From the IMG/VR virus record IMGVR_UViG_3300024313_000600: a stretch of 64,000 bases of DNA; one strand, written 5' to 3'. Every line of letters starts with the position of its first letter. Within the stretch, counting starts at the first letter, position 1. The position numbers and the translations under genes are program-made. Below, in pieces: positions 29,301-64,000 of the stretch. The notes below the pieces were generated by a model, which saw only the letters and a list, made by a program, of their open reading frames with translations, made no database searches and was not told the origin of the DNA. The stretch is from an uncultured virus (IMG/VR IMGVR_UViG_3300024313_000600). Its lineage: Duplodnaviria > Heunggongvirae > Uroviricota > Caudoviricetes.

Positions 29301-30989
29301 TTGAAATACTTAAAATTATTTGAACAGTTCATAAGTGAGAAGAAACCTGCAGGTGCACCTGATTGGCATGACTCTGATGCACCTGATGCAAACGGTAGAT
29401 TTAAAGATCTCTCTATAAAGGATTTAGCCGCATGGTTAATAAAAACTAGAAATAAAGATGTTAAAAAGATTAGCGGTTCTTTAACTCAGCAAGTAGTTTT
29501 TAATAGAAAGAGTGATCCTAAGTATGCTGAAAAGATGGAGAAAACCAGAAAAGAAGTTTACAAACAATTAGGTAGAGAAGATTTATTAGAATCTATATTA
29601 AATGAAGGTTATCAGTATTTCGATGGCAAAATGGCAAGAGGTATTAAAGGTGACTCTGGTGTTAAGTTTAAAAAAGGAGATAAGGTTACTTTAGAAATTC
29701 AGCCTAACTATTATATTATTTATGGACCTAATAGAAAACAAATCAGTTTAGATAAACAAGATTTTGATCCAGAGACATTACAACAGTATGTTATATATGA
29801 ATCAGCTGATATTACCATTGGTGGTAAAGAATATAAGCTTATTCAAAAAGGAAGTAAAATTACTCTAATTAATACTAAGTTATCAGCTGATAAGTTTATA
29901 TTTAGAAATGAAAAAGAATTTAAAGCATGGGCTGATGACCAAGTAGAACCAATTGGTGGAACTCAATCATCTCATTTTGGTATTAGTGAATCAGTTAATA
30001 ATGAAGACTATCTTAAGAAGGTTAATTTTATATTAGCAGGAGAAAAGATAGAAGGTCTTACTGGTAAAAACAATAAAAGAATTTATGGTAAAATAAACGA
30101 CGTATGTTTAGACAACCTATTTAATTCATTTTATGCAAAGGGTGATTATAAAAAAGACCTTGATGTTGATCCGAAGCTACCTCTTATTTATTATGGTGGA
30201 AATTCAAAAGAAGGTTTAGATTTTCTAAAGAGATACAATGTATCAGAGGATGTTATGTACAACTTACCAGAAGCAATGAAGGTTAGCGGTAATAAGAGTG
30301 ATTTTTATAAAATGTTTAAAGATACTGATTTTATACCAAAGGCAGTTTATAAAAAGGAAGATGCAAAAGATTTAGAATTTCCTATTATTGCAAAACCAGA
30401 TGATGGTCATTCTGGTTTAGGTATTGAGATTTTTGATACTTATGAAGACTTAGAAAAAAGTAAAGGTAAATTTGAAAACTATTCTGAGGCAAAAGACCTA
30501 GATAGAGAATTTAGAGTTTTACTAATGAATGAAGATCCTGTATTAGTTCATGAGAGAGTATCATTAAATGAAAATGAAATTAAAGATAAAGAAGCTGATG
30601 AACAAACTGAATTTACTTATGTAGATCAAGATATGAGTAAATTAGATTTTATGGATAAAGTAAATGACATCTGTAAAAAAGTTAGAGAAAAATTAAAACT
30701 TGGTCTTTGGTCAATAGATTTAATGATTGATAAGAGTGGAGATTGTTGGGTTGCCGAAATTAACTCAGCATCTGGTATGGCAGCAGATAAAATGGCAAGA
30801 GTATATGTTAAAGTATATGAAGATTTTTATGGAGAGAAATTGCCACAAGAGTTTAAGACTCATTTAAATGAAGAATACATTAAGCCTATTTATAAAATTA
30901 ATCTTAAAGAAAACAAGGATCAAATTAAAAGATCTAAGTGCTGCGTTAATTATCAGGATATTATTGATGGAAAGGAAACTATTCTTTAA
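29301..30989 (+). CDS. Leader-bearing multi-module protein with a C-terminal ATP-grasp (RimK-like) ligase
   Basis: TTG start, MKYLKLFEQFISE leader; FPIIAKPDDGHSGLGI, REFRV, SIDLM, EINSASG. Confidence 0.75.
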   Translation: MKYLKLFEQFISEKKPAGAPDWHDSDAPDANGRFKDLSIKDLAAWLIKTRNKDVKKISGSLTQQVVFNRKSDPKYAEKMEKTRKEVYKQLGREDLLESILNEGYQYFDGKMARGIKGDSGVKFKKGDKVTLEIQPNYYIIYGPNRKQISLDKQDFDPETLQQYVIYESADITIGGKEYKLIQKGSKITLINTKLSADKFIFRNEKEFKAWADDQVEPIGGTQSSHFGISESVNNEDYLKKVNFILAGEKIEGLTGKNNKRIYGKINDVCLDNLFNSFYAKGDYKKDLDVDPKLPLIYYGGNSKEGLDFLKRYNVSEDVMYNLPEAMKVSGNKSDFYKMFKDTDFIPKAVYKKEDAKDLEFPIIAKPDDGHSGLGIEIFDTYEDLEKSKGKFENYSEAKDLDREFRVLLMNEDPVLVHERVSLNENEIKDKEADEQTEFTYVDQDMSKLDFMDKVNDICKKVREKLKLGLWSIDLMIDKSGDCWVAEINSASGMAADKMARVYVKVYEDFYGEKLPQEFKTHLNEEYIKPIYKINLKENKDQIKRSKCCVNYQDIIDGKETIL

Positions 30990-47975: not shown

Positions 47976-48608
47976 ATGAGTTTTGAAAATGTAACAAAAT
48001 TAGAAGAAAGGCTTGCAGAATTTTTTGGAGCACCGTATGCAGTCTGCTTAGATGCATGTACACACGGAATTGAATTATGTTTAAGATTACAAAACATTGG
48101 AACAATTACAGTACCAAAAAGAACTTATATATCTGTTCCTTTCTTGGCTAATAAATTAAATATTAATTTAGAGTGGAGAGATGAAGAGTGGCAAGATTAT
48201 TATAAAGTTAATGAACATTTCAAACCTATTTATGATGCAGCAGTATTATGGAAAAAAGATAGTTACATCCCAGGATCATTTATGTGTTTAAGTTTTCAAT
48301 TCCAAAAACATTTATCTTTAGGAAGAGGCGGTGCTATTCTTTGTGATACTAAAGAAGATGCAATTGCTTTAAAGAAAATGTCATATGATGGAAGAATTCC
48401 TAATATACCGTGGAGAGATCAAGATATAGAAACATATGGGTATCATTATTATATGACACCAGAAACTGCTCAATTAGGTTTAGATAAATTTGATGATGCA
48501 GTTAAAACGAAACCTAAGCAATGGGTAATAACAGATTGGCCTGATTTAACCAAGATGGCTGTGTTTAATAAAAAAGAAGAGGTAGATCCTTATTTACAAA
48601 CTCGATAA
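47976..48608 (+). CDS. Short DegT/DnrJ/EryC1/StrS-family aminotransferase
   Basis: LAEFFGAPYAV, DAA, SFQFQKHL..GRGGAIL, GYHYYM; 210 aa. Confidence 0.78.
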   Translation: MSFENVTKLEERLAEFFGAPYAVCLDACTHGIELCLRLQNIGTITVPKRTYISVPFLANKLNINLEWRDEEWQDYYKVNEHFKPIYDAAVLWKKDSYIPGSFMCLSFQFQKHLSLGRGGAILCDTKEDAIALKKMSYDGRIPNIPWRDQDIETYGYHYYMTPETAQLGLDKFDDAVKTKPKQWVITDWPDLTKMAVFNKKEEVDPYLQTR

Positions 48609-48624
48609 TTAAAATAAAAAGAAA

Positions 48625-49617: not shown

Positions 49618-50282
49618 TGGAAGAATCTATTAAAGAACTTATCCAAAAGGAAATAGAAGCAATAAGTAATATCCCTATTGATTTTTCTTTTGAATTAGCA
49701 GTAAATAAAATAAGAAATAAAGTACATAGTCTAGGACCACGAGGCAAGGTTGTATTATCAGGGATGGGTAAGGCTGGTCAAATAGCCTTAAATATTGCAA
49801 CTACTTTATGTTCAACTGGAACTCCTGCTGTATATTTACACCCAAGTGAAGCTCAGCATGGCGATTTAGGAATACTTCAAGAAAACGATGTTCTTATTCT
49901 TTTATCAAATTCAGGTAAGACTAGAGAAATACTAGAATTAATTGAGTTATCTAAAAACATGTATTCTAATATTAATATTATATGTATAACAGGTAAAAAA
50001 CAAAGTCCATTAGCAATGAAGTCTGATGTAATTTTACATACTGGTGATGCTAATGAAATATGCCCTTTAGGATTAACTCCAACAATATCAACAACTCTTA
50101 TGACGGTTATAGGAGATATCTTAGTAGTAGAATTAATGAAAAAAATTAAATTTACAAAGAAGGAATATTCTAAAAGACACCATAGCGGTTACTTAGGCCA
50201 AAAAAGTAAAGTAGAATCTAATCACACACCAGGCAGTTTACTAAATGAACTACCTCCTTCTGATTATCAAATGGGTAATTAA
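49617..50282 (+). CDS. kdsD: Arabinose-5-phosphate isomerase, SIS-only KdsD/KpsF type
   Basis: Start revised to ATG 49617; SGMGKAG, STGTP, HPSEAQHGDLG, SNSGKT, PT.STT, RHHSGYLG. Confidence 0.88.
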   Translation: MEESIKELIQKEIEAISNIPIDFSFELAVNKIRNKVHSLGPRGKVVLSGMGKAGQIALNIATTLCSTGTPAVYLHPSEAQHGDLGILQENDVLILLSNSGKTREILELIELSKNMYSNINIICITGKKQSPLAMKSDVILHTGDANEICPLGLTPTISTTLMTVIGDILVVELMKKIKFTKKEYSKRHHSGYLGQKSKVESNHTPGSLLNELPPSDYQMGN

Positions 50283-50995
50283 TGAATAAAGTAATTGCAA
50301 TCATACCGGCAAGATGGGGTTCTACAAGACTTCCTGGTAAACCGCTCGCTGATATAAACGGTAAGCCAATGATTCAATGGGTCTATGAAGCTGTTAAAAG
50401 ATCTGATGTTGATAAAGTTGTAGTTGCTACTGATAATGTGGAAATAAAGATAGCTGTTAAATTATTTGGTGGTGAAGCTATAATGACTGATGTAAAACAT
50501 TTGACTGGAACAGAGAGAGTGTTAGAAGCATATCAGCATTATAAAGAAGATTATGAATATGTTATTAATGTTCAGGGTGATGAGCCTATAATAAATGAAA
50601 ATGATATTAATCTCTTAATTTCTGTACTTAAGAAAAATCCTCTCAATATTGCAACTTTAGTAGGTTCATTAACAAAATCACAAGCAAGTGATAGAAATAC
50701 AGTAAAGGCATTACTTGATAATAATAAAATAATAATGTTTACAAGGAGTCCTATTTTTACTATCCAATCATTATATGTTAAAAGGCATATAGGAATTTAC
50801 GGATTTAGTAAGGTAATGACAGAAAAGATTGATAAAAACATTATGATTGAAACTTCCAACGAAATAGTAGAAAATCTGGAACAGATAAGATGGGGTGATA
50901 ATGGAATAAGTTTTAATTATGCTAGAGCAGCTGGTTTATATAAAGGTATAGATACACAAAAGGATTTAGATTACGTCCGTACATTCTTAAACTAA
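50282..50995 (+). CDS. kdsB: CMP-Kdo synthetase (3-deoxy-manno-octulosonate cytidylyltransferase)
   Basis: IIPARWGSTRLPGKPLADI, VATD, TGTER, NVQGDEP, HIGIY, LEQIR. Confidence 0.9.
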   Translation: MNKVIAIIPARWGSTRLPGKPLADINGKPMIQWVYEAVKRSDVDKVVVATDNVEIKIAVKLFGGEAIMTDVKHLTGTERVLEAYQHYKEDYEYVINVQGDEPIINENDINLLISVLKKNPLNIATLVGSLTKSQASDRNTVKALLDNNKIIMFTRSPIFTIQSLYVKRHIGIYGFSKVMTEKIDKNIMIETSNEIVENLEQIRWGDNGISFNYARAAGLYKGIDTQKDLDYVRTFLN

Positions 50996-51029
50996 TATTA
51001 AAAAAGCTATATAATAATAAATCACTATT

Positions 51030-51164
51030 ATGGAAAACCAAGGAAAATCTAAAGAACAACTAAAAAGTAGTTATATAGGTGCATTTATAGGTTTTATAGG
51101 AATTATTGCTCTTATAGGTTTTATAGGAATCAGTGCAGTAATAACATACTTAATGCCAAACTAA
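51030..51164 (+). CDS. 44-aa single-TM protein (not in the ORF track)
   Basis: MENQGKSKEQLKSSYIGAFIGFIGIIALIGFIGISAVITYLMPN*; behind the TAAAC-N17-TATAA motif at 50988. Confidence 0.6.
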   Translation: MENQGKSKEQLKSSYIGAFIGFIGIIALIGFIGISAVITYLMPN

Positions 51165-51421
51165 TGAAAAAGGAAGGAATGAACATGGCAAATTTAGATA
51201 TTGCTACAAAAACAACTCCTATTGTATGTGAAGCATGTGGAAATGAAACCTTTAAACCTATTTTCTTTTTAAGAAAGATTAGTAGGTTTCTTACAGGCGA
51301 AGATACAGATAGAGTATTGCCCATGGACAGTCTAGCATGCGTAAAATGTAATAATGTAAATAAAGAATTTAATCCAAACCCAAATCCAACAAAAGTAAAT
51401 AATAAAAAAGAAGATGAGTAA
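51164..51421 (+). CDS. Zinc-ribbon protein
   Basis: CEAC...CVKC. Confidence 0.65.
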   Translation: MKKEGMNMANLDIATKTTPIVCEACGNETFKPIFFLRKISRFLTGEDTDRVLPMDSLACVKCNNVNKEFNPNPNPTKVNNKKEDE

Positions 51422-51965
51422 AGAAACTGAAACTAAAGTAGTTGATATGACTACAGAAAAAGCTCCAAAAACAGTAGAGCAATTAAAGACAAGAGAATCT
51501 GAATTAGATCAAATTAATGAAAATCTAATTAAAGAAATGCAGGAAAGAGAATATCCAGTAGATTTTAAAACCAAAAAAGTTTTTGATAAACTATTAAAAT
51601 TCTTAGAGAAAGATGCTCCTTGGGGACATACTACTGCAACCGGTTTAATTATGCTATATCATAATTTAAGAGAAGCCAAGGAACTTGTTAAGGATAAAGA
51701 ATTTGATGGTATTGTAGCTGTAAGATCTACTAGTGTTACTATTCTTTGGCAAATGGTTACCAAGATGACTGGTTCTGGTTTTTATGAAGCAAAATCATTT
51801 GTTGAGTTAATGGCTAATGTTGGTGAATCATTATCTGAAGCCGTACAAAATGTACAAAAAGATAATCAATCTCTTAGAGATAATCATTCTGAGTTGGCTA
51901 AGGTACAACAGGAATTATCTGATTTAGAAACACAAACATCTGTTGAAGGGCCAATTAATAAATAA
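51414..51965 (+). CDS. Hypothetical coiled-coil protein
   Basis: 183 aa ORF. Confidence 0.6.
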   Translation: MSKETETKVVDMTTEKAPKTVEQLKTRESELDQINENLIKEMQEREYPVDFKTKKVFDKLLKFLEKDAPWGHTTATGLIMLYHNLREAKELVKDKEFDGIVAVRSTSVTILWQMVTKMTGSGFYEAKSFVELMANVGESLSEAVQNVQKDNQSLRDNHSELAKVQQELSDLETQTSVEGPINK

Positions 51966-52213
51966 TGGGATTCCACAAAAGACATATAAATAACGAACAG
52001 GTTATTAATTTATATAAATCTGGTGGTGTGGAAAATGTTATTAAATGGTATACTGGCAAGGTTGATGCTCTTATCTTAGAAACCGGTCTTGCTAGTAATA
52101 TTAATTCTATTCTATGTGATCCTGATTGGCAAGTATTTGGTTCAGTTAAAATAAACGAGGAAATCGTTAGCTTAATTAATAAAGAACTTGGTATAGAGGA
52201 CTTAAAAACGTAA
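51965..52213 (+). CDS. Hypothetical protein (MGFHKR start)
   Basis: 82 aa ORF. Confidence 0.6.
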   Translation: MGFHKRHINNEQVINLYKSGGVENVIKWYTGKVDALILETGLASNINSILCDPDWQVFGSVKINEEIVSLINKELGIEDLKT

Positions 52214-52218
52214 CTTAA

Positions 52219-53103
52219 ATGAAAATCTGCAAAATTATTTTTTCTACTAATAGGCTGGAATTTTTAGTTCCTACGCTTAGTAGCTGTAATGAAAATATAG
52301 ATTGGGGAGACCATGAAGTAGATGGATTATTTATAGACGATATGCCAAAAGATCGTAATGATGACCAGATAACAGAATTAGCAAACATGTATGGCTATAA
52401 TAATGTTATTTTACATAAGGAAAATAAAGGATTAGGTTACACTTGGCATGAAAGTTATGAGTGGTTAAAAGATAAAGGTTATGATTATATTTTACACCAA
52501 GAAGATGACCTTATATTAAAAGGGCCTATAAAGATTGATGATTTTATAGATGCAATGTCTTATAAGTCGGCTTATGGAGTAAGTGTAAAATATCAAGATG
52601 ATTGGTATTGGAAAGATAAAGTTATAGAGTATACTTGGGTAAAAGATAATCCAAATTTTAATTATAATTTTAATCTTGAAATAACTAATGATATTAATAA
52701 ACATTATGACAAACCACCAGTAAAAGATGATAATGAATTTCATATAATGTTTGATACTTCATTTTCTTTTTATCAATGCAATTTAATTTTAGAAGGTTAT
52801 AAATTAGCTGTAGCTGATGGTCGTGGTTTAAATAATGATGATTGGATTGCTGAAGGTATATTTGGTAGGTATATAAGAGATATACTTAAAACTAATAGAC
52901 TGTGTTTAATTATTGTGGATAAAAACAATAAGGATTTAGTAGAGCATATTGGTGAATGGTCATGGGGCCATAGGTCAACATTAAAAAGTATTATTAATGG
53001 AAGCTATAATGAATATCAAAAAACTAAAATGAAAGAAATGCTTGATAACCCTTATGCAAAAATAAATTCTAGGACTTGGGCAAATTGGACATCTTCAGAT
53101 TAA
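52219..53103 (+). CDS. GT-A fold (GT2-like) glycosyltransferase
   Basis: STNR.EFL..TL, FIDD, N.GLG, LHQEDD, VEHIG. Confidence 0.7.
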   Translation: MKICKIIFSTNRLEFLVPTLSSCNENIDWGDHEVDGLFIDDMPKDRNDDQITELANMYGYNNVILHKENKGLGYTWHESYEWLKDKGYDYILHQEDDLILKGPIKIDDFIDAMSYKSAYGVSVKYQDDWYWKDKVIEYTWVKDNPNFNYNFNLEITNDINKHYDKPPVKDDNEFHIMFDTSFSFYQCNLILEGYKLAVADGRGLNNDDWIAEGIFGRYIRDILKTNRLCLIIVDKNNKDLVEHIGEWSWGHRSTLKSIINGSYNEYQKTKMKEMLDNPYAKINSRTWANWTSSD

Positions 53104-53141
53104 CTAAATCCTAATGAATAAATAAAAAAATACAAATTTTT

Positions 53142-53936
53142 ATGAGATTCGTTAATAACTTCAAACAATTTATTACAGAGAAGAAAAAAGAAAGCTTTGA
53201 AGATAACATCAAAGACCATGGATATTTTAAAGATCTATCCACCTCCACTTCAAGAAAGAAGGCAGACCAAATGAAAGATCAAGCTTCTAAGGCTGATGAT
53301 GATCCTTCTGCTTACAAAGAATTACCTGGTGATACTAAAGGTAAAAAACTTTTAAAGAAATCTAAACACACAAAAGCATTTGATGATTTATACGCTGAAG
53401 GATTAGAAGAAATGATAATCAATGAAGGTGTAATGAGTGAATTGCATATAATGATGGAAGAAGCTAAAAACTTTGCAGAATTTAAGAAAAGATTCTATAA
53501 AGAATTTAGTGATAAAGTTAAACCTAATAAAGATTTAGATAATTGGCTAAAGGAACTTTATTCTGATGGGTTAGGAGAATCTTTAGATGAAAAGGCTAGT
53601 GGTGATCGTGGACCTATAGGCGGTAAAGGTATTGAAACTGGTCTTAAGAATAAATCAAAACAAACTGGTGTATCATTACCTCTATTAAGATTAGTAATGA
53701 GAAGAGGTATGGCTGCATGGAAAGCTGGTCATAGACCTGGTGCTGGCCAAGAACAGTGGGGTTATGCTAGAGTTAATTCATTTTTAACTAAAGCTCCTGG
53801 TACTTGGGGTAGACCTTTAGATGATCCTAAAAAGAATGGACCTAAAGGTTCTTATGGAGCTGATGCTGATATTGCTAAAGAAGTAATAAAGAAAGGTGAA
53901 GATAAGAAATTAAAAACAACAGGGTTACCTAAATAA
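53142..53936 (+). CDS. Leader-bearing multi-module putative internal head protein
   Basis: MRFVNNFKQFITE; IINEG and ESLDE linkers; C-terminal RRGMAAW..GHRPGA..EQWGYARVNSF module. Confidence 0.7.
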   Translation: MRFVNNFKQFITEKKKESFEDNIKDHGYFKDLSTSTSRKKADQMKDQASKADDDPSAYKELPGDTKGKKLLKKSKHTKAFDDLYAEGLEEMIINEGVMSELHIMMEEAKNFAEFKKRFYKEFSDKVKPNKDLDNWLKELYSDGLGESLDEKASGDRGPIGGKGIETGLKNKSKQTGVSLPLLRLVMRRGMAAWKAGHRPGAGQEQWGYARVNSFLTKAPGTWGRPLDDPKKNGPKGSYGADADIAKEVIKKGEDKKLKTTGLPK

Positions 53937-53937
53937 T

Positions 53938-54483
53938 ATGAAATTTGTAAAAGGCTTTAAAGATTTTGATAAAGTATCTGAAGAACTTAAATACCATATA
54001 GATAATGGATTAGGTTTAGAGGATACTGTTTTCCGTTTAGGTTCAGATGCTCATGCTAAATTATTTGAAGAAGCAGAACAGTATTGGGATAAAGGAAATA
54101 TAGTATTAAACGGTAAGAGTGGATGGATGGCAAAAAACTTAGAAGTAGGAAAGAAGGCTATTTATAAAGATCGAAAAACAGGAAGAACTAAAAAAGTTAA
54201 ATTAGATTCACCAGAACGAGGAGGTAATAGAAAGTTTATTGTTTATCGTAATACTGGTAGAACTGATAAAGAAACTGGTGAAATAGTAGCAAAGAAAATT
54301 GAATGGGGAGATCCAGGATTAACTGTAAAGAATGATGATCCAGGAAGAGCTAAAAGTTTCTGGGCTAGACATCAATGTGATCAAAAGAAAAAGATGGATC
54401 CTAATAAGACAGGATTCTGGGCATGTTATGGACCTTCTCTGTTTGGAAAGCAGTTAGGTTTAAAATCAACTAACCCTTGGTAA
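53938..54483 (+). CDS. Leader-bearing putative virion protein
   Basis: MKFVKGFKDF..VSEE; C-terminal WGDP....KNDDP.RAKSFWARH.C...GFWAC module. Confidence 0.65.
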   Translation: MKFVKGFKDFDKVSEELKYHIDNGLGLEDTVFRLGSDAHAKLFEEAEQYWDKGNIVLNGKSGWMAKNLEVGKKAIYKDRKTGRTKKVKLDSPERGGNRKFIVYRNTGRTDKETGEIVAKKIEWGDPGLTVKNDDPGRAKSFWARHQCDQKKKMDPNKTGFWACYGPSLFGKQLGLKSTNPW

Positions 54484-54513
54484 ATAAATAAAACAATAAA
54501 AATAAACAAAGAT

Positions 54514-55872
54514 ATGAAATTTATTCCAAATTATGGAGATTTTAAGAATTCATTGAATGAAGCTGCATTTAATTTTAATGACAGTTTAGATGAAACTAAA
54601 CTAGGACAAGCTGCAAATATAATCTGCTCCTTTTTAAATAAGAAAACTAAATTAGATTTTAAAGTCTTTCCCTTTGGTGTTAAATCAAATGGTGTTGAAG
54701 GTGTTATGCTATATAGTGATAAAGGTACCGCTGCTGTTAGGGTAGGTGGTAAAGGAATGAATAGAGGTCCAGGTATTGTTGGTGATCTTGCTTTCTTTTC
54801 TGACGCAGGAAGTAGAAAGGCTGATTTTGTTATGAGTAGTGATTCCTTTCCTATTACTGCTTTGGTTAGTGAATTTGCTAAATTAATCAGTGAACCTTCT
54901 TATGCTAAAGAAGTTGAAACTTTACAAGAATCTGTTAATGAAGGTAAGCGTGGTGTATTAACTGCACAAGAACAGAAAATGGTAATGAAACAATTAAAAT
55001 CTGGCAAGAGTGCTGCAAAGATCTCTAGGGATCTTGGTATATCATACGGTGCAATTCTTAAATTAAAAAGAAATGAAAATGTTACTTTAGAAGAACCTGC
55101 TGCGGTAAAAGTAAATGAAGAAACTTTAGCAGATAAGGTTAAATTCTTAGATGAAACATTACAAGATATTTATGATATAGCCAGAAAGGTTGCTGCAGGC
55201 GCATTTAATTCATTAATGATATCTGGTAGAGCCGGTACTGGTAAAACCTTTAGTGTAGAGAAAGCACTAACAGATGAAGGGCTTGTTGCAGATGATGATT
55301 ACATTATGGTGTCTGGCGCAGTATCAACAATTATGATGTTTAAGAAAATGTATCAATATAGAAATAAGGTTTTAGTATTTGATGATTGTGATGCTGTCTT
55401 TAGAGATGAAAATGGTCGTAACATATTAAAGGCTGCACTTGATACAAAAGCAGTAAGAAGAATATCTTATCTTAAGAAGAGTGGATTAGTATTTGATCCT
55501 AAGGATTTTGAAATGGATCCTGAAGGGGAATTTAATATGATAGAAAACGGTATGGTACCAGCATACTTTGATTTTGTAGGTAGAGTAATATTTATTTCTA
55601 ACCTTGCAAAAGATAAGGCTGATCCTGATGGAGCTATTCGTTCAAGGTCTATTCTGATGGATGTTAATCCAGATGATGCTACTCTTATGGAAAGAATTAA
55701 AACTTTACTCCCTTATCTTGATCCTAAGGATATGCCTTTAGCAGATAAAGAAGAAATTTATGACTTTATGAAAAAGGCCAACGACGTTTCAATGAGAACC
55801 TTTGTTAAAGCCGCAGGACTTAAACAAGCAGGTTTAAAGAACTGGGAAAGAATGACAAAAAGATATTTATAA
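54514..55872 (+). CDS. Leader-bearing protein: N-module, ESVNEG linker, HTH, AAA+ ATPase
   Basis: MKFIPNYGDFKNSLNEA; SAAKISRDLGISYGAI HTH; GRAGTGKT; VLVFDDCD; AIRSRS. Confidence 0.78.
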   Translation: MKFIPNYGDFKNSLNEAAFNFNDSLDETKLGQAANIICSFLNKKTKLDFKVFPFGVKSNGVEGVMLYSDKGTAAVRVGGKGMNRGPGIVGDLAFFSDAGSRKADFVMSSDSFPITALVSEFAKLISEPSYAKEVETLQESVNEGKRGVLTAQEQKMVMKQLKSGKSAAKISRDLGISYGAILKLKRNENVTLEEPAAVKVNEETLADKVKFLDETLQDIYDIARKVAAGAFNSLMISGRAGTGKTFSVEKALTDEGLVADDDYIMVSGAVSTIMMFKKMYQYRNKVLVFDDCDAVFRDENGRNILKAALDTKAVRRISYLKKSGLVFDPKDFEMDPEGEFNMIENGMVPAYFDFVGRVIFISNLAKDKADPDGAIRSRSILMDVNPDDATLMERIKTLLPYLDPKDMPLADKEEIYDFMKKANDVSMRTFVKAAGLKQAGLKNWERMTKRYL

Positions 55873-55874
55873 TT

Positions 55875-57482
55875 ATGAAATATATTAAATCTAAATCTGA
55901 TTTTATAGCTGAAAGTAAATCCTATAAATTAAACGAAGGTCAATTTTCATGGATGACTCATGATACTGACGAACAAATTGGTTCAGAAAAACAAAATACC
56001 ATTGATGTCTATATGTATGACAACGAAGGTAATAAATGGAAGGAAACTAGATATGATGGTTACGGTAACTTTGGTGGACAGGATTATTATGATCTTGTTG
56101 CTACTATGAATGGTTATGATGCTGATAGAGAAAAAGGAGTTGATTTAGCTTTCGGTAAATTGAAAACTAAAGATAAAAAGAGAAAGACTTTATTTCCTGC
56201 ATTAGTTACAGATCCTAGGTATAATTGGAAAAGGCACGATTTTACAGAAGAGGCTGATGGCGATCCTAACCAATCATGGTACCAAGAAGAAGAAGACGAT
56301 CGATATGGGTATGATGATTATTATGAATCTACAGTTACTGAAGGTAAAGGGTGGAACGACGTTGCAAGAGTAATGGATGCTGGATTAAAAAAGGCCATAA
56401 AGAAAGGGATAACCAATTTAAGGTATGCACAAGATTATGTTAAATCATTAGAAAGAATGGCAAAGAAAAATGCTAAACAGTTCTTTAATGATTATGGAGA
56501 TTTTACTGAAGATGATTTTATTGAAGATGTAAGGTATAATATGGCTAATGAAAAAGTCAATGAAGCTAGAAGAGCTGCCGCTGATAAATTACTTAAAGAT
56601 GTTATAAATGGTAATGCATCTGAAGTTGAAGGTATTAAATTATCTAAGGATATGGCACAAGGCTTTGCGGATTGGTTACGATATTCTACTTACGGTAAAA
56701 AGTTTGGAGCTTTACCTTTTGATAAATTATTTACTGCTTCATTTAATTGGGGATTAGATAGATTTGTTAAAGGTGCCAATACTAAAGTAAAGGATGAGTT
56801 TAAAGAACTTAAGGCTAAAGCCAAAGAAATGCGTAAGGCTGAAATGAAAGGTGAATCTATTACTGAAGCTAAAGAAATGAGCAAGAAAGAAGTTCGTGAT
56901 CTTAAGATAAAGATTAATAATGCAAGAACAATTGGTAAATATTTTACAAAGGATGAGGTAGAATTTTTACAGTCATTATTTGAATCAGTTAATGAAGGTA
57001 AAGGAGATAAGGCTGTAAGCATGGCTCAGAAAAAATTAGATAAGGTTATGACAGATCTTAAAGCTAATCTTTTAAAATTTAAAGGTGCTAAGACCGATGC
57101 AGATAAAGAAACATTTAAATCTGAAGCAAAGAGATTAACTAAGTTAAGAAAAGATGCGCATGATAATTTAGAGCAAGCTATTAAAGATGCTTATGCTGAT
57201 GTTGAATTAGTAGTAATGGAAAATTACGATAATGATCAAAGAAAAGAAATGGCAGCAAAAGGATTAGCATTACCTGATGGTAGCTTTCCAATTAAAAACT
57301 TAGAAGATTTAAAGAATGCTATTCAGGCATACGGTAGAGCAAAAGATCAGGCAGCCGCTGCTAAGTTTATAGCAAAAAGAGCAAAGGCTTTAGGTGCTGA
57401 GGATTTAATTCCAGACACTGAAGATTTTCAAAAAGCTTTAAAAGAAGCATCATTCGGAAGAATACCAAAATTTGGAAAGTAA
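55875..57482 (+). CDS. Leader-bearing polyprotein-like internal head protein (about 6 modules)
   Basis: MKYIKSKSDFIAE; linkers LNEG, ESTVTEG, EKVNEA, ESITEA, ESVNEG, VMEN; last module ALPDGSFPI..LKNAIQAYGRA. Confidence 0.72.
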   Translation: MKYIKSKSDFIAESKSYKLNEGQFSWMTHDTDEQIGSEKQNTIDVYMYDNEGNKWKETRYDGYGNFGGQDYYDLVATMNGYDADREKGVDLAFGKLKTKDKKRKTLFPALVTDPRYNWKRHDFTEEADGDPNQSWYQEEEDDRYGYDDYYESTVTEGKGWNDVARVMDAGLKKAIKKGITNLRYAQDYVKSLERMAKKNAKQFFNDYGDFTEDDFIEDVRYNMANEKVNEARRAAADKLLKDVINGNASEVEGIKLSKDMAQGFADWLRYSTYGKKFGALPFDKLFTASFNWGLDRFVKGANTKVKDEFKELKAKAKEMRKAEMKGESITEAKEMSKKEVRDLKIKINNARTIGKYFTKDEVEFLQSLFESVNEGKGDKAVSMAQKKLDKVMTDLKANLLKFKGAKTDADKETFKSEAKRLTKLRKDAHDNLEQAIKDAYADVELVVMENYDNDQRKEMAAKGLALPDGSFPIKNLEDLKNAIQAYGRAKDQAAAAKFIAKRAKALGAEDLIPDTEDFQKALKEASFGRIPKFGK

Positions 57483-57483
57483 T

Positions 57484-57696
57484 ATGAAATCATTTAAACA
57501 ATTTAACGAAAACAACCAAATACCTCTAAATGAAGGTAACGGTCAAACACTTAAAGAATTTGGAGATCTTTTAGCTATGCTTAGAGATGATACATCAAGT
57601 ATAGAAAAATCTATTGGAGAGATGGATGGTAAAAAGGCTAGAACTTTACAAAAACAAATAACTACACTTTACAATAGTTTATTTAAATTAAATTAG
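57484..57696 (+). CDS. Small leader-bearing protein
   Basis: Start revised to ATG 57484: MKSFKQFNE...PLNEG. Confidence 0.65.
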   Translation: MKSFKQFNENNQIPLNEGNGQTLKEFGDLLAMLRDDTSSIEKSIGEMDGKKARTLQKQITTLYNSLFKLN

Positions 57697-57705
57697 ACAG
57701 ATAAT

Positions 57706-58935
57706 ATGAAATATTTTAAAACATATGAAGCATATAGATATGGTGTTAATGGAGTAGGATCTCTTAGGAATTCATTAGCTGCATTAAAAAGACAAAATAT
57801 TAATGGTCGTTATGTAGATCCTGAAATATTGGCAAAAGCAATCCGTAATGAATATGAAGCTATCACAGGCGAGAAATATGAGGATGAAGTTCAGATGTCA
57901 ATGGATAACACTATTGCTGATATCATTGGTCATTATAAACTAGATGGACCAGATTTTATGGCAGCATGGGATAAAGTAGTTAAAGAATCAATTAATGAAG
58001 CTAGTGATCAACAAAGATTAACTCATTTAAGAAAATTTGGAATTGCACCTAATAACCAACCACAAAACGGTGCTTATATAAAACGAGTAGCAAAACCTGG
58101 AAAATTCTTCGTGGATTGGAAAGATGCTTTTGATCTAGGTGACGTTGCATTAGAATTTATTAAATCAGCTGGAAGTGAATCTGTATTTGATATTATTGAT
58201 CTTAACACAATGAAACGTACAGGAAAACAATACTTCATTAAGAAAGGTGATTTAAAAAACTTAAGAACTACTTATGGCGTTCGAGTTAATGAATCTATTA
58301 CTGAAGCTAAAGGAGGTCAAATTATGCCAGGAGATTATGTTAAAAGCCAATATGGCGATATCTACCTAAGAGTAGATGGAAAGGTTGGTGGAGCTGATGC
58401 TTATGTAAGAGTTACTAAAGGTAAAGCTGGTAAAAGAAAAACTAGTTTACATGACTCTGTAAAATTAACATTAGTAAATAAGGACGGATTAGAAGAATCG
58501 GTTAATGATGCTTCTAATAATTTAGAAAAGATATTTGGAACTGATCAAGAAACAATGGATATGTTTCAACGCATTGAAGATGAAGGTACTGTAAAGGATA
58601 TGATAGAATTTATTGATGAATTCGGTAATGAAGAAATGTTATCACGTTATGGAATAAAATCAACAGCTCAAGTAAAAAAGCTTGCTAAAACTATAATGAA
58701 TGAATCTTATGAAGGTAACTTTACCGATTTTAAATATGATTTAGAAATGGCTATAGATAATATGGATCTTTCTCCTAAGGCAATTAAATCAGTCAAGAAA
58801 AAAGGTAAAGGATATGAAGTAAGACTATCTTCTTATATGAGTGATAAATCTACATGGGAAAAGATTGGTGATACAATCGGAGCCACGCTTATATCATTTA
58901 AACCTGGTAGTATTAATATTGGAATATACGAATAA
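57706..58935 (+). CDS. Leader-bearing polyprotein-like internal head protein (about 5 modules)
   Basis: MKYFKTYEAY; linkers ESINEA, ESITEA, ESVNDA, NESYEG. Confidence 0.72.
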   Translation: MKYFKTYEAYRYGVNGVGSLRNSLAALKRQNINGRYVDPEILAKAIRNEYEAITGEKYEDEVQMSMDNTIADIIGHYKLDGPDFMAAWDKVVKESINEASDQQRLTHLRKFGIAPNNQPQNGAYIKRVAKPGKFFVDWKDAFDLGDVALEFIKSAGSESVFDIIDLNTMKRTGKQYFIKKGDLKNLRTTYGVRVNESITEAKGGQIMPGDYVKSQYGDIYLRVDGKVGGADAYVRVTKGKAGKRKTSLHDSVKLTLVNKDGLEESVNDASNNLEKIFGTDQETMDMFQRIEDEGTVKDMIEFIDEFGNEEMLSRYGIKSTAQVKKLAKTIMNESYEGNFTDFKYDLEMAIDNMDLSPKAIKSVKKKGKGYEVRLSSYMSDKSTWEKIGDTIGATLISFKPGSINIGIYE

Positions 58936-58938
58936 GCA

Positions 58939-59280
58939 ATGAAAGATTGTAAATGTAAATCGTGTAAGTGTAATGAATTAACTAATGAGCAAGTAATTAA
59001 TCAGATGGAAGATCAAACTAAACCTTTTACACAAGAAGATTATTCTACTGATACGGTACTACGACACTTTGACAAAAGTGCACCAGATCATTTATATAAA
59101 TGGCATGCCGATGATGAAGATCGTTTTGTAGAATCTCTTAACGAAAACGATTGGCAATTTCAATTTGATAACGAATTACCACAATCAATAGAGCCAGGTA
59201 AAATTATTCACATACCTAAAGGCTTAATCCACCGCCTAATTAAAGGCACCTCCGAATTAAGTATTTCAATTAAATCTTAG
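58939..59280 (+). CDS. Cupin-fold protein with a Cys-rich N-terminus
   Basis: CKCKSCKC; WHADDEDR, WQFQFDNELP, IPKG..HRLIKG. Confidence 0.65.
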   Translation: MKDCKCKSCKCNELTNEQVINQMEDQTKPFTQEDYSTDTVLRHFDKSAPDHLYKWHADDEDRFVESLNENDWQFQFDNELPQSIEPGKIIHIPKGLIHRLIKGTSELSISIKS

Positions 59281-59382
59281 CTTAAACCATTTTCTTTTTT
59301 TAGGTATAATTAATATAGAAACATTAAGGCTTTCAGAAACCTAAAAATGTTGTTATAATTATTTTATAAATCAAAACTAACT

Positions 59383-61401
59383 ATGGGAGAAATATATCCA
59401 GACGAGGAGAATATCAAAAAAGGAAAAAGGAAAGGGCAAAAGGTTAATAATTTAACAGTACTTGAAACTTATGGTACCAATGTAACACAGTTAGCAATAG
59501 ATAATAAGCTTGATCCTGTTATTGGTAGAGAAGATGAAATATTAAGAGTAGTACAAATTTTAGGTAGGCGAAGAAAAAACAACCCGGTTTTAGTAGGAGA
59601 ACCTGGTGTAGGTAAAACTGCGATAGTTGAAGGATTAGCATCTCGTATAATTGAAGGTACTGTTCCTGTTACATTACAAGGAAAAATTATATACACATTA
59701 GAATTATCAACAATAGTTGCAGGTACAAAATACCGTGGTCAGTTTGAGGAAAGAATGAAAGCCATTGTTGATGAATTGGTAGAAAACCCTGATGTAATAA
59801 TCTTTATTGACGAATTACATACTATCATGGGGGCTGGTGGTTCTACTGGATCTTTGGATGCTTCAAATATTATTAAGCCTGCATTAGCTCGTGGGGAAAT
59901 CAGATGTATAGGTGCAACCACCTTTGATGAATTTAGAGAAAGTATTGAAGAAGATGGTGCATTAGATAGAAGGTTTCAGAAGGTTGTAATTGAGCCTCCA
60001 ACATTAGAAGAAACTATTGAAATTTTATCTCACCTAAGACATAAGTATTCTGATTTTCATAACGTGAATTATTCTGATGAAATTATTCAAATGATAGTAA
60101 AGGTTGCCGATCAATATATGATGGATAGGTACTTCCCTGATAAAGCTGTTGATATTTTAGATGAGGTAGGTTCTTATAAACATTTAAAACATATTAAGAT
60201 TCCTAAAAAGATAAAATCTCTAGAATCTAAATTAATAGAAAAGGAAAAGGAAAAGAAAGATGCAGTTAAATCTCAGAGTTACGAAGTAGCTGCTAGGATG
60301 AGAGATGCATGTTTAAATTTAAAAGGCAAAATTGAAGAAGAATACAAATCTTGGAAGACTGAATTGGCCGAAGTAAAAATGGAAATTACCGAAGATGATA
60401 TTCTTTATGTAATATCTAAAGCAACCGGTATACCAGTAGAAAAGATTACTGATAAAGAACACAAGAACTTATTAGGAATCAATAAACATTTATCCTCAAA
60501 GGTAATTGGTCAAGAAGAAGCTATTAATAAAATATCGATGACCATCCAAAGAAACCGAGTGGGTATTAGAAAACGAGATAGGACTATGGGTAATTTTATT
60601 TTCTTAGGACCTACTGGTGTTGGTAAAACTCAATTGGCAAAAGAGTTAAGTTCTTATATGTTTAATTCTAATGAAGATCTTATTAGAGTGGATATGACTG
60701 AATATATGGAATCTCATTCTGTTTCTAAATTGATTGGATCACCACCTGGTTATGTAGGTCATGAATCTGGTGGGTTTCTAACAGAGCAGGTGAAAAGAAA
60801 ACCGCACTCTGTTATATTATTTGATGAAATAGAAAAAGCTCATCCAGAGGTCTTTAATGTATTACTTCAAATGTTAGACGATGGTTACTTAACAGATTCA
60901 CTAGGAAGAAGTATTGATTTTAGAAATTGTTTAGTTATCTTAACATCTAATACTGGATCTAGAAAAGTACAAGATTTTGGGAGCGGTATAGGATTTGGTA
61001 CAAAAACAGTAGCCGAAGAACAACAAGCAGAAAAAGATATTATTAATAAAGCATTAAAGAAAAAGTTTGCACCAGAATTTTTAAATAGAATAGATGAGGT
61101 TATAGTTTTTAATTCCTTAACTAAAAAAACAGTAATGTCAATTTTAAATAAAGAATGTAAAGAACTTGCAGAAAACTTAAATGATGTAGGTGAATATGTT
61201 CTTAAAATAAATAAAGCTGCAAAGAATATAATCTTAGAACAAGGATTTGATCCAAAGTATGGGGCAAGACCATTAAGAAGGTCATTGGAAAGATTAATTG
61301 AAAATCCTGTTGCAGAAATGATTCTTAAAAAGGAAATTTCTGAAGGTGACATTATAAATATAACTGCAACAAAAGGAGAACTTAAAATAACTAAAGGTTA
61401 A
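59383..61401 (+). CDS. clpC: ClpC/ClpA-type AAA+ unfoldase lacking the N-terminal domain
   Basis: LDPVIGR, GEPGVGKT, GTKYRGQFEER, DELH, UVR-like coil, GPTGVGKT, GSPPGYVG, IGF ClpP-docking loop, GARPLRR. Confidence 0.9.
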   Translation: MGEIYPDEENIKKGKRKGQKVNNLTVLETYGTNVTQLAIDNKLDPVIGREDEILRVVQILGRRRKNNPVLVGEPGVGKTAIVEGLASRIIEGTVPVTLQGKIIYTLELSTIVAGTKYRGQFEERMKAIVDELVENPDVIIFIDELHTIMGAGGSTGSLDASNIIKPALARGEIRCIGATTFDEFRESIEEDGALDRRFQKVVIEPPTLEETIEILSHLRHKYSDFHNVNYSDEIIQMIVKVADQYMMDRYFPDKAVDILDEVGSYKHLKHIKIPKKIKSLESKLIEKEKEKKDAVKSQSYEVAARMRDACLNLKGKIEEEYKSWKTELAEVKMEITEDDILYVISKATGIPVEKITDKEHKNLLGINKHLSSKVIGQEEAINKISMTIQRNRVGIRKRDRTMGNFIFLGPTGVGKTQLAKELSSYMFNSNEDLIRVDMTEYMESHSVSKLIGSPPGYVGHESGGFLTEQVKRKPHSVILFDEIEKAHPEVFNVLLQMLDDGYLTDSLGRSIDFRNCLVILTSNTGSRKVQDFGSGIGFGTKTVAEEQQAEKDIINKALKKKFAPEFLNRIDEVIVFNSLTKKTVMSILNKECKELAENLNDVGEYVLKINKAAKNIILEQGFDPKYGARPLRRSLERLIENPVAEMILKKEISEGDIINITATKGELKITKG

Positions 61402-61442
61402 ACAAATTAAGTTTTTTACATATAAAAATAAACAGTAATACA

Positions 61443-61589
61443 GTGACAAGCACAGATCAACAAAACAATGGCAATCCTCATACACACGAGACGAGAAATA
61501 CTTTTAATAAAAAGGTTGCTAAGTATAGTATGCTAGGTAAGAGTAAGAAAGTTCAGTGGAGTGATAAGAGAAGATTTCGTAACATTTAA
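61443..61589 (+). CDS. Small basic hypothetical protein (48 aa, GTG start, not in the ORF track)
   Basis: Open frame fills the gap behind the TAAAC-N17-TATAA motif at 61399. Confidence 0.4.
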   Translation: MTSTDQQNNGNPHTHETRNTFNKKVAKYSMLGKSKKVQWSDKRRFRNI

Positions 61590-61600
61590 TCTAAATAAGA

Positions 61601-62626
61601 ATGACATATTTAACATATGATGACATACAATTAGTACCTGCATTCTCAGGTATTAAATCAAGACAATCAATTGATCTTACAACAAAACTTTCTAAAAAAT
61701 ATTCAATTCGTATACCTATAGTAGGATCTCCTATGGATACGGTTTGTGAAAGTGAAATGGCATTTAAACTTTATCAGCTAGGTGGAGTTGGATGTATTCA
61801 TAGATTTAATACTATTAAAGAACAGTGTGATGAGATAACTAAACTCATAACTTTAATTAATTCTTATCATAATAATAAAGTACCTTTAACTATTCCTATT
61901 ATGGCTGCAATTGGAGTTCAAGAAGATGATAAGATAAGGGCTAAAGAATTAGTAATTAATGGAGCTAAGGTTCTTTTAATTGACGTTGCACACGGTGATC
62001 ACCAAAATGTTATAGATATGACAAAATGGTGTAAAGATAATTTACCTAGTCATGTAGATATTATTGCAGGTAATATTGCAACAGCAGAGGCAGCCGAACG
62101 ATTACAAGATGCAGGTGCAGATGGTTTACGGGTAGGTATTGGTGGTGGCTCTTTATGTACTACAAGAATCAAAACTGGATTTGGTGTACCTAATGTTACT
62201 TGCCTTGAAGAAATATCTAAAGTTGCAACAGTTCCTATTATGGCAGATGGTGGAATTAGAAGTAGCGGAGATATTGCAAAGGCATTAGCAGTTGGTGCTG
62301 ATAATGTAATGTTAGGTTCTCTTCTCGCTGGTACTTTAGAATCACCAGGCCAAATGGTTGAAAAAGGTAATGCTCTTTATAAAAGATACAGAGGATCTGC
62401 TTCTTTAGAAACAAAGACTACTCATGGGCAAGCACAAAGAAATGTAGAAGGAGAATCTACAATTATTCCATTTAAAGGTGGTGTCAAATATATAATCAAA
62501 GGTTTAACCGATGGTGTAAGATCTGCTTTATCATATGCAGGAGCCAAAGAAATAAAATCATTTTTCCCCGAATATGTACAAGTTACTAATGCTGGGCAGA
62601 ATGAAGCAAAACCACATCTATTATGA
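61601..62626 (+). CDS. IMP dehydrogenase / GMP reductase family (no CBS domains)
   Basis: SPMDTV, GG.G.IHR, IDVAHG, GIGGGSLCTTR, ADGGI, YRGSAS, VEG. Confidence 0.9.
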   Translation: MTYLTYDDIQLVPAFSGIKSRQSIDLTTKLSKKYSIRIPIVGSPMDTVCESEMAFKLYQLGGVGCIHRFNTIKEQCDEITKLITLINSYHNNKVPLTIPIMAAIGVQEDDKIRAKELVINGAKVLLIDVAHGDHQNVIDMTKWCKDNLPSHVDIIAGNIATAEAAERLQDAGADGLRVGIGGGSLCTTRIKTGFGVPNVTCLEEISKVATVPIMADGGIRSSGDIAKALAVGADNVMLGSLLAGTLESPGQMVEKGNALYKRYRGSASLETKTTHGQAQRNVEGESTIIPFKGGVKYIIKGLTDGVRSALSYAGAKEIKSFFPEYVQVTNAGQNEAKPHLL

Positions 62627-62832
62627 AAAACTTTTTAAATAACAAATATGTAAGATTGATTTTTAGTATAGCAATCATGGGATCTGCTATCCCTTCTATC
62701 TATGAAGATTTTACCTATGGGCACCAAGGAACCTGGACTCATTATGGTATGGGTTTAGTTGGAATTTTATACTTTATTGAATCATTACTTTGGACTTTAG
62801 ACTTATGGACAGACAACTCAAAAAAGAATTAG
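62623..62832 (+). CDS. Small two-TM membrane protein
   Basis: Two hydrophobic helices. Confidence 0.55.
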   Translation: MKNFLNNKYVRLIFSIAIMGSAIPSIYEDFTYGHQGTWTHYGMGLVGILYFIESLLWTLDLWTDNSKKN

Positions 62833-63182
62833 AAACCTTTGAAGATTTAATTTTCGATGGAAAGGAAATAAACACAGATGACTTTTATCTATTAAAGAAA
62901 AAGCTTTTAAAGAAAGAAGAATTAGAATTACTTGAAATTCATTTATTATTAGAAGCAATGCTAGATAAAAGAAATGATAAGTTAATGAATAGGAGACTGA
63001 ACATTCTTACTATTTGGTCAACTATATTTTTACCTCTATCATTTTATACTGGTTTATGGGGAATGAACTTTGATGATGTACCTTTAATATCAGATGATAA
63101 TGGGTTTTGGGTATTTTCTGGATTAACTGCAGTAACAGTTTTAGGAATGTGGTTATATTTTAAAAAGAATAAATGGATTTAG
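62805..63182 (+). CDS. Truncated CorA-family Mg2+ channel (stalk end plus two TMs)
   Basis: MNRRLNILTIWSTIFLPLSFYTGLWGMNF...KKNKWI: GMN signature. Confidence 0.85.
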   Translation: MDRQLKKELETFEDLIFDGKEINTDDFYLLKKKLLKKEELELLEIHLLLEAMLDKRNDKLMNRRLNILTIWSTIFLPLSFYTGLWGMNFDDVPLISDDNGFWVFSGLTAVTVLGMWLYFKKNKWI

Positions 63183-63186
63183 ATAA

Positions 63187-64000
63187 ATGAAAGTAGTTAA
63201 TTTTCCTGCACACAAATATGATTTATTAGAAGGTGGTTGGCCTGATGTATATTTTAATCTATGGAAAGCTTTTCATGAATTAGGGTGGGAAATTAGGATA
63301 AGCCCTTGGTTTTGTTCTTATAATAACGGCGTACAAGAACATGTGTATATAGAGAGAAAGATAAGAGATACTATTTTACCTGAATATGTAAATGTTGGGA
63401 TTACTGATAATCCTAATCACCTTTATATTTTTAATCATATTCATAAATATGGAATTAGAAAAAATAATAATCCTAAAGGAAACTATAATTTATTTATAAA
63501 ACCGTCAGGGCCAGGTGCTGATCATTTTACTATAGATGAATTAGGATATGCAGCACATAGCAGTATAACATACAAAAAGCCTAATTACGAATCAACACCA
63601 TACATAGATTTTTTTAATAATACACTACCTCATTGGATTAACGATAAGATAAACAAATGGGATACTGATAATAATGTACAAGAATTTTCTAAACCTTCTG
63701 TTGAATTACCAGAGAATCATATTTTATTTGTAGGGCAAATGCCAGGAGATGAAACATGTTCTATATTTTCATTTGGTGATCATTGGCATAAGTTTAAAAC
63801 ATTGGTAGAGGTTTTAGAAACCGATGATCCTGTAGTTATTAAACTCCACCCATATATGAAACATGAAAATGCAAAAGCTTGGGCAGAATCTGATATGATT
63901 CAATTAGATAATGTTATAAAACATTGGGAAAGTCTAGGTCATATTGTATTACAAGGATTTGAATCTATTCATGATGTTTTGCCTAAAAGTAAAGTTGCTA
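63187..64000 (+). CDS. KpsS/KpsC-like (Capsule_synth) beta-Kdo transferase candidate, partial
   Basis: Runs off the window edge; FTIDELGYAAHSS, ILFVGQMPGD (QxxxD), VVIKLHP, SIHDVL. Confidence 0.65.
   Translation, partial: MKVVNFPAHKYDLLEGGWPDVYFNLWKAFHELGWEIRISPWFCSYNNGVQEHVYIERKIRDTILPEYVNVGITDNPNHLYIFNHIHKYGIRKNNNPKGNYNLFIKPSGPGADHFTIDELGYAAHSSITYKKPNYESTPYIDFFNNTLPHWINDKINKWDTDNNVQEFSKPSVELPENHILFVGQMPGDETCSIFSFGDHWHKFKTLVEVLETDDPVVIKLHPYMKHENAKAWAESDMIQLDNVIKHWESLGHIVLQGFESIHDVLPKSKVA

Follow-up and report, generated by a model that had tools for sequence, protein, structure and literature searches.

In-frame exchange of modules at a probable prohead-protease linker in genes of a marine T4-like phage

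What are short, nearly identical stretches of coding DNA doing inside several genes of one phage? The question is raised by a 64,000-nucleotide (nt) stretch from an uncultured virus (IMG/VR IMGVR_UViG_3300024313_000600; hereafter, the window), in which gene A (55875..57482, + strand, 535 amino acids [aa]) and gene B (57706..58935, + strand, 409 aa) are predicted to encode polyproteins of five modules each. Between the small modules of such genes stand linkers whose peptide has the general form E-S-[VIL]-[NT]-E. A first-pass annotation of the window took the linkers for possible sites where T4-type recombination would add, drop, or swap effector modules without frameshifts, giving a cassette array that needs no integrase. 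Judged by their sequences, close relatives gain, lose, duplicate, and reorder small proteins at the linker DNA. I propose that genes A and B probably encode head-cargo polyproteins, that their linkers are cut by a gp21-type protease, and that in-frame microhomologies within the linkers serve as rare joints between modules.

Exchange of modules among related loci

Modules are named here by their first residues. In gene A, a targeting peptide (55875..55937) is followed by GQFSW (55938-56324), GKGWN (56343-56549), ARRAA (56565-56852), AKEMS (56868-56981), and GKGDK (56997-57479). Gene B consists of MKYFK (57706-57984), ASDQQ (58000-58284), AKGGQ (58306-58494), ASNNL (58510-58695), and SYEGN (58705-58932). 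A single-module gene (57484..57696) joins a targeting peptide ending in LNE to the module GNGQT. All are on the + strand.

Related loci were retrieved by a search with the AAA gene of the window, 51 of them from metagenomes and 4 from viral records. The array is spanned end to end by 20 of the 44 entries examined, the window included, and 19 were used. L117 (71% identity) was left out, as beforehand were L092, whose proteins are the same as those of the window, and duplicate retrievals of one contig (L004, L024, L026, L031, and L108). After filtering on gene starts 44 genes remained; gene A of L104 was missed, as was a gene of 112 aa in L087. The AAA protein is 83-100% identical across the 19 loci, within which gene B assumes 17 architectures, from 239 to 693 aa. 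Chains hold 3-9 modules with internal sites. Splitting them at linkers yields 47 clusters, or about 43 module families once composites are removed, in 76 adjacencies. So many families and adjacencies among loci so little diverged suggest a high rate of joining.

Individual events can be read from the alignments. Loss of AKEMS in L024 runs exactly from 56852 to 56982, that is, from one linker to the next. KETLA is present twice in L096, and the identity of the two copies stops inside both linkers. Three reciprocal adjacencies in the 19-locus set mark changes of order, and the modules EKDFK and GNRYS shift between genes. GNGQT, absent from most relatives, is found both alone, as in the window, and fused, in L088 to the end of gene A. 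The middle module (GVMSE.., 53427-53576) of a gene at 53142 resembles by eye modules in gene B of L115 (L115:2723-2872) and in L025, a likeness that suggests exchange between that gene and the families of genes A and B.

Do the changes fall at linkers more often than they should? Breakpoints were defined as the ends of protein alignments, located without regard to linkers, so that the test is not circular. Of 383 breakpoints, 198 are no more than 5 aa away from [ILV][NT]E, against a null expectation of 8.0%, and 257 are equally near a wider linker motif, against 11.7%. When breakpoints are collapsed to classes of module ends, 30 of 44 are within 5 aa of a linker. Mapping at the level of DNA (264 of 653 within 15 nt of a linker, null 10%) was noisy, since divergence also terminates alignments, and was replaced by the protein-level count. 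Had breakpoints been random with respect to linkers, the first-pass idea would have fallen; they are clustered instead.

Then there is the evidence from a single module followed through many settings. A separate protein search gave 54 matches, of which 50 could be parsed. In these 50 proteins AKGGQ has 27 distinct upstream contexts, and all 27 end in Glu immediately before its first residue; 23 end in [ILVM][NT]E, and two are the targeting peptide itself. Together with the clustered breakpoints and the gene B architectures, these contexts uphold the claim that linkers are where modules come and go, are swapped, and change order without loss of frame. In remoter phages (L006-L023), AKGGQ is found at 55-76% identity behind other Glu-ending linkers (EAKNE, DINE, NITE, RVGE), and the codons GAA GCT AAA GGA GGT are kept in 16 of the 17 remoter-phage loci listed.

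Variants of the array also coexist in the sea. Contigs from four seawater runs show strains that diverge at 57527, 58003, and 58493. A joint that bypasses AKEMS is present in contigs of run X15, and X9 and X12 both contain a joint 57478-57701. Contigs also have loose ends at 57527, in the single-module gene, in X15; at 58003 in X9 and X15; and at 58493 in X12, X15, and X20.

The linker as DNA and as peptide

The string that first drew attention is 23 nt long and has exactly two copies in the window. One (56852..56874, +) is the linker ESITE before AK, between ARRAA and AKEMS, and is the left end of the AKEMS indel; the other (58290..58312, +) is a doubled linker, VNE-SITE before AK, between ASDQQ and AKGGQ. 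A 20-nt degenerate repeat, GAATCWGTTAATGAAGGTAA, has copies at 54928 and 56982, and kindred copies start at 29988, 57985, and 58495. A string search recovered all these positions, and the common reading phase reported for them holds as well: every copy opens with a Glu codon, in phase with its own open reading frame (ORF), and reads E-S-[VI]-[NT]-E, then A or G, then K.

The copy at 56982..57001 (ESVNE before GK, between AKEMS and GKGDK) matches the 56852 linker at 18 of 22 nt in register. ESINE (57985..57999), after MKYFK, is the most variable junction, with 9 different downstream modules listed, and the variant ESVND (58495..58509) precedes ASNNL. To these may be added linkers that the first pass did not list, at 56325-56342 (ESTVTE, between GQFSW and GKGWN), 56550-56564 (EKVNE, between GKGWN and ARRAA), 58285-58293, 58696-58704, 55929-55937, and 29589-29606; that at 58696 is short, MNE before SY (58696..58710), and precedes the terminal module SYEGN. 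All those named by peptide are on the + strand. Nor did the first pass, in its account of the repeats, liken the peptide to a head-protease site.

Is the 23-nt string an element apart? There are only 3 exact repeats of at least 23 nt in the window, and the other two (974/992 and 19726/19969) each lie inside one repetitive gene. Two ESITEAK peptides would share all seven codons by chance, given the codon usage of the clade, with a probability of 0.0055-0.0079. A search of viral_contigs found no exact match to the 23-mer. Linker pairs within a genome share a median of 13 of 21 nt, however, and 6 of 515 pairs share at least 20, so the 23-mer is the top of a continuum of similarity and its special standing is lost. 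What does stand out is the linker in general: a 16-nt linker consensus, with up to 3 mismatches, is matched 18 times in the window where 2.75 +/- 1.68 matches are expected, and none of 100 shuffles reaches 18. That the 58290 copy arose by direct gene conversion from 56852 is unproven. The ITE form does match the ARRAA linker in the 19 loci, but the idea is weakened by the frequency with which xTE precedes AKGGQ in other proteins and by the lack of any ARRAA-AKGGQ join in 54 proteins.

Similar peptides encoded with similar codon preferences will look alike in DNA, so it matters whether the likeness exceeds that expectation. It does. In 17 linkers whose flanks are unrelated on either side, the same residue is encoded by the same codon with a frequency of 0.815, a value reached in 0 of 2000 simulations, compared with 0.586 expected. 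A wider set, of 37-43 linkers drawn from 172 in each of 20 resamplings, gave 0.73-0.79 against 0.59 for dipeptide-matched controls (0 of 500 simulations per resampling). An initial test had used an over-strict gene filter that left 9 linkers; it was underpowered, with only Ser TCA near p=0.03-0.05, and was redone. Ser in linkers is encoded by TCN in 41 of 41 cases, against 244 of 335 control ES pairs, and GAG, the codon at 21 of 67 Glu sites in module interiors, occurs at none of 24 linker Glu sites (GAA at all 24; p=0.0012). Codon bias acting on a common peptide is therefore not a sufficient account of the linkers.

In T4, a 10-20-residue N-terminal peptide sends proteins into the prohead, where gp21 removes it (PMC9958956, PMC5694885, PMC7411985), cutting after the Glu of I/LxE (PMC12991175). 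Nine genes of the window, chosen by eye, start with a peptide like this one. Their N-termini (MKYIKSKSDFIAE, MKRVKSYNQFIAE, MRFVNNFKQFITE, and similar) may be compared with MKTYQEFIAE, the start of T4 IPII and IPIII as translated from NC_000866.4. The likeness is evident in the genes at 169, 29301, 33695, 53142, and 55875, the last being gene A, which starts MKYIKSKSDFIAE..KLNE; it is looser in those at 53938, 54514, 57484, and 57706. The motif ES[VIL]1-2[NT][ED] is found 7 times in the 2972 aa of the nine genes and once in the 17176 aa of the other genes of the window.

A relative takes the argument further. Record G002 (locus L124) is syntenic with the first genes of the window and, directly upstream of them, has a PF03420 protease-scaffold gene and a Gp23 capsid gene. 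Its capsid protein contains [ILV][NT]E three times in the first 50 aa and once in the other 593. The protease-scaffold contains the motif eight times, including just past the protease domain; the gene preceding it, presumably the portal gene from its position and likeness, contains none. Because the same motif marks the relative's capsid propeptide and its protease-scaffold, the linker peptide is probably a prohead-protease site, and I infer that genes A and B are head-cargo polyproteins, both predictions drawn from sequence. The C-terminal 80 or so aa of gene A match stretches that in other phages belong to genes labelled capsid maturation protease or portal. The G002 gene (L124:8183-9904) fuses the protease to a long scaffold-like region with two copies of ESINE in linker-like codons, from which the linker may have originated. 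A distant phage (L051:8117-16600) has many single-module genes whose targeting peptides bear a doubled site, F[VI]NES[IV]..NE.

Which came first, the peptide or the DNA? In 8 distant homologues of the AAA gene the linker at 54928 varies (ESALYE, ESLTE, ESLILE, ESLVNE), and no swap is seen there. A linker kept as peptide with changed DNA and without swapping suggests that the peptide role comes first, and the primary constraint on the linker looks to be the protease site.

How the joins might form

The joins do not look as though they were made in one way at one point. The part of the linker after GAATC often goes with the module downstream of it, so that ASNNL is preceded by ESV[TN]D whichever of five neighbours stands before it, and AKEMS by xTE. 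In other joins the crossing lies inside AATGAA or GAAG. The exact DNA overlap at junctions has a median of 8 nt in 83 comparisons and 6 nt in 103 comparisons, with no single value; shared lengths range from 0 to more than 20 nt, and there is no fixed crossover point. L079 and L078 keep the last 7 residues of EKDFK (compared with L080), a scar as expected of deletion at a 5-nt ATGAA overlap beside the linker. By one description, T4 recombination calls for small (<50 bp) patches (PMC2839356). With a median of 6-8 exact nt at junctions and 13 of 21 in linker pairs, the T4-type homologous recombination first suggested as the route is doubtful. Rather than efficient strand invasion and ordinary UvsX crossing-over, overlaps of this kind point to slippage directed by microhomology, or to homeologous exchange, with selection as the filter. 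A RecA-family gene is present in G002.

The proposed mechanism would run as follows. The N-terminal capsid-targeting peptide would carry the chain into the prohead, where a gp21-type protease would cut every [ILV]-[NT]-E linker behind its Glu and free proteins of 40-160 aa. Each module starts after, and finishes in, almost identical Glu-Ser..Asn-Glu codons. These in-frame microhomologies of 5-20 nt, with cores GAATC and ATGAA, would be the joints at which modules are, on rare occasions, deleted, duplicated, or exchanged. Joining would take place during phage DNA replication and co-infection; joints are observed at linkers, and the enzymatic route to them is conjecture. A join at a linker keeps the frame and restores a cut site on both sides, and so it should survive selection. 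Repeated joining would spread and homogenise linker DNA, and a dedicated recombinase would not be needed. A bolder version is tentative, somewhat short of an even chance in my estimation: that the clade has turned a head-protease cut site into a dual-coded joint, its peptide for processing and its DNA for recombination, making an integrase-free, in-frame cassette array from which dozens of small injected counter-defence proteins are dealt anew among genes and genomes, at a pace exceeding the divergence of core genes and perhaps via circular intermediates, with the GAA and TC codons held by recombination itself.

Several facts weigh against the proposal. Of the breakpoints, 126 of 383, and 14 of 44 classes, lie more than 5 aa from a linker as defined; by eye, about 6 of those classes are K-ES overhangs or linker variants, and others are allele swaps within modules. 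The counts of breakpoints and of codons share ancestry, and selection alone would be expected to put breakpoints at domain borders. The excess of shared codons can arise from the descent of linkers without selection on their DNA; descent through repeated joining explains it, and it is no proof of such selection. The third bases of Ser and Val differ in 36% and 25% of orthologous linker pairs, against 14% and 17% in modules, in a comparison that is pseudo-replicated; counted per site, the third base of Ser differs at 7 of 10 linker and 18 of 49 module sites (p=0.08). Such freedom would be expected if crossovers after GAATC recombine the two halves of linkers, or simply from free drift. Regarding the protease, the capsid and protease genes are known from the relative G002, outside the window; the P3 residue is often Val rather than Ile or Leu; and the expected P1 residue is Asp or Asn in two linkers of the window (58509, 30002). 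In phage SPN3US, the measured protease cuts, self-cleavage excepted, only remove N-terminal propeptides (PMC10052503), so release of many functional products is without measured precedent there. Nor did the check for module deletions turn up a de novo event or a circular joint among the joints listed for the four seawater runs, where only coexisting strains appear, where 89 more loose ends lie outside the listing, and where contigs drop rare forms.

Might selection do everything? Illegitimate, homology-independent joins could occur anywhere, with survival limited to joins that leave domains whole and a protease site in place, and linker DNA would be alike simply because it travels with modules. 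Short overlaps at junctions (some of 0-3 nt), variable linker length, persistent scars, the free third positions of Ser and Val, and the linker of the AAA gene that lasts as a peptide without swapping are all what this account would lead one to find. I nevertheless consider it unlikely, given joins to AKGGQ that are codon-precise in all 27 contexts, codons shared beyond bias by linkers with unrelated flanks on both sides, the invariant GAA of linker Glu, and the sheer number of families and adjacencies at so little divergence of the AAA gene. The opposite extreme is a dedicated recombinase of phage or host that reads the linker core (GAATC..AATGAA) and moves modules as circles, in the manner of integron cassettes or PeSL mini-circles. 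Reinsertion of circles would yield the observed flips of order and moves between genes, and a binding core could be formed by the GAA codons, which never vary, with the TC of Ser, which hardly does. Flips are equally accounted for by duplication followed by loss, however, as the duplicate in L096 illustrates; the crossover position is not fixed, off-linker scars occur, and no circular joint was listed. The tyrosine and serine recombinase families (PF00589, PF00239) have no match among the window ORFs scanned or in three related records that are 13-65% complete. This is the least probable of the alternatives considered.

It might also be that the linkers are uncut spacers or scaffold-like sites, and that the chains act whole or serve as core filler to be degraded, so that modules are not delivered effectors at all. 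T4 offers a precedent in proteins of its core, gp22, gp67, and gp68, cut to small peptides that exit the head (PMC9958956), and the scaffold of G002 bears the same ESINE motif. No module matched any known function: among 44 module stretches of genes A and B and their relatives, none exceeded the Pfam cut-off or matched a named PHROG, at the low sensitivity that profiles have for pieces of 40-100 aa, and the label of effector in the first-pass annotation is accordingly putative. In a scan of 49 stretches, clear matches were confined to the AAA domain and to DUF5824/phrog_3041 pieces. ESM Atlas gave no usable match for ASDQQ, and its leads for GQFSW as an RHS-repeat, all below 0.9, were not accepted. 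Yet the modules are conserved across contexts and are found alone behind a targeting peptide like that of T4 internal proteins, some carry enzyme folds (ATP-grasp, AAA), and [ILV][NT]E sits mostly at borders. Single-sequence AlphaFold of gene B was uninformative (mean predicted local distance difference test [pLDDT] 44.5) except for the last module, which starts after its linker and is the only part modelled with a pLDDT of about 70-80. I regard uncut or filler chains as very improbable. T4 Ip1-3 inhibit type IV restriction enzymes (PMC12373910), and by analogy the modules of head-cargo polyproteins are candidates for new counter-defence proteins; that they are injected for counter-defence or takeover is the likeliest function, by my reckoning a little better than an even bet.

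Known systems and the phage that carries the array

The array resembles T4 internal proteins in its cargo and PeSL cassettes, or the Botstein-Campbell linker model, in its shuffling, and it is a member of neither as defined, because its products are multi-module, its joint is coding, and its crossover is not fixed. With IPI, IPII, IPIII, and Alt of T4 it shares a near-identical N-terminal peptide (MKTYQEFIAE compared with MKYIKSKSDFIAE and MKRVKSYNQFIAE; PMC9958956, PMC5694885, PMC7411985, PMC12373910, PMC12991175), a site I/L-x-E that ends in Glu, and small variable cargo in a hypervariable locus. The T4 proteins are single-domain and lose only the N-terminal peptide, whereas here up to 8-9 modules follow one targeting peptide, with internal sites. 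In RB49 and phi1, PeSL cassettes and mini-circles likewise employ short conserved linkers, which guide how T4-type phages gain, lose, and exchange small ORFans, and no dedicated recombinase has been identified for them (PMC2839356); the placement of rearrangement breakpoints at a repeated short element is found here too. PeSLs are intergenic promoter-terminator (stem-loop) elements that move whole genes, and their circles have been demonstrated (PMC2839356); the linker of 15-20 nt is coding, lies inside one ORF, is bound to the frame, and doubles as a probable protease site, with no circles among the joints listed.

Other comparisons are more distant. Integron-like arrays differ in that no fixed crossover in a conserved core is seen here. 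T-even gp38/gp37 adhesins undergo intragenic exchange in or near conserved peptide motifs, but they exchange segments of one folded protein in fixed order (PMC3157838), while here unrelated modules vary in number, order, and gene. Polyvalent proteins (Iyer et al. 2017) are also multi-domain, fast-rearranging, virion-associated conflict proteins, likened to viral polyproteins; they have known enzymatic domains, often with an embedded zincin peptidase, and the word linker is absent from the text that describes them (PMC5512222). Here the modules are unannotated and a repeated site of the head-protease type lies between them. Among open papers and preprints, none was found on the shuffling of modules at internal head-protease sites.

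The case bears on a long-standing issue in phage evolution: do modules move via conserved linkers, or are they random joins filtered by selection? It has the advantage of a 15-nt joint whose peptide can be measured and recoded apart from its codons. A rule of annotation comes with it. When genes are split at the linker, the 19 loci alone give about 43 small proteins that are candidates for head cargo and that whole-gene annotation overlooks.

The genes belong to a T4-like jumbo phage from a marine setting. The window is 30% GC, with nearly all genes on one strand, among them terminase, tail sheath, tail tube, topoisomerase II, and thymidylate synthase. The closest terminase, at 49%, is from a 462-kb uncultured phage; next are uncultured phages of 635-642 kb, at 35-40%, and Tenacibaculum and Sphingomonas phages show 35-36%. 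From 89 to 97% of the words of 55800-59000 are present in each of twenty seawater or marine runs, one of which may be the sample the window came from, and none in runs X21-X23. Relatives of the array lie on contigs of up to 218 kb. There is no close cultured relative among 50,697 phage records, none of which covers 80% of gene A. Record G001 has no DNA match to 50000-64000 of the window, and neither G001 nor G004 yielded a capsid gene.

Upstream of gene A, the AAA gene (54514..55872, +) encodes a targeting peptide, an N-domain, the linker ESVNE before GK (54928-54947), and a helix-turn-helix/AAA ATPase (phrog_1250). Before it, two further genes with targeting-like starts (53142..54483, +) encode 264 aa (linkers at 53418 and 53577; DUF5824) and 181 aa. 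A distant member (29301..30989, +) has a targeting-like start, the linkers ESILNE (29589) and ESVNNE (29988), and a C-terminal ATP-grasp domain; with a ligase domain of this kind at the end of a targeting-peptide polyprotein, it is a probable head-borne enzyme.

The array is preceded by a large sugar-modification cluster (38127-50995 and 52219-53103; GT25, GT11, GT2, NodZ-like, methyltransferases, GDP-mannose dehydratase, DegT aminotransferase, SIS, cytidylyltransferase), and the equivalent region of L024 carries different genes. It is followed (59383-63182) by ClpB-like chaperone, IMPDH/GMP-reductase-like, and CorA-like genes. Elsewhere in the window are a sigma-70-like factor at 31605, PhoH, HSP20, and Cpn10, and a 1137-aa tape-measure-like gene (17657-21070) with internal repeats of 220-243 nt, which holds one of the other exact 23-nt repeats. 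The A/T-rich motifs GAATATATAAAAAAA and ATATAAAAATAAA, at 141-156, 15238-15253, 33667-33683, 2667-2684, 23205-23222, 26473-26490, and 61420-61437, stand just upstream of genes, some of them structural, and may represent a phage promoter consensus.

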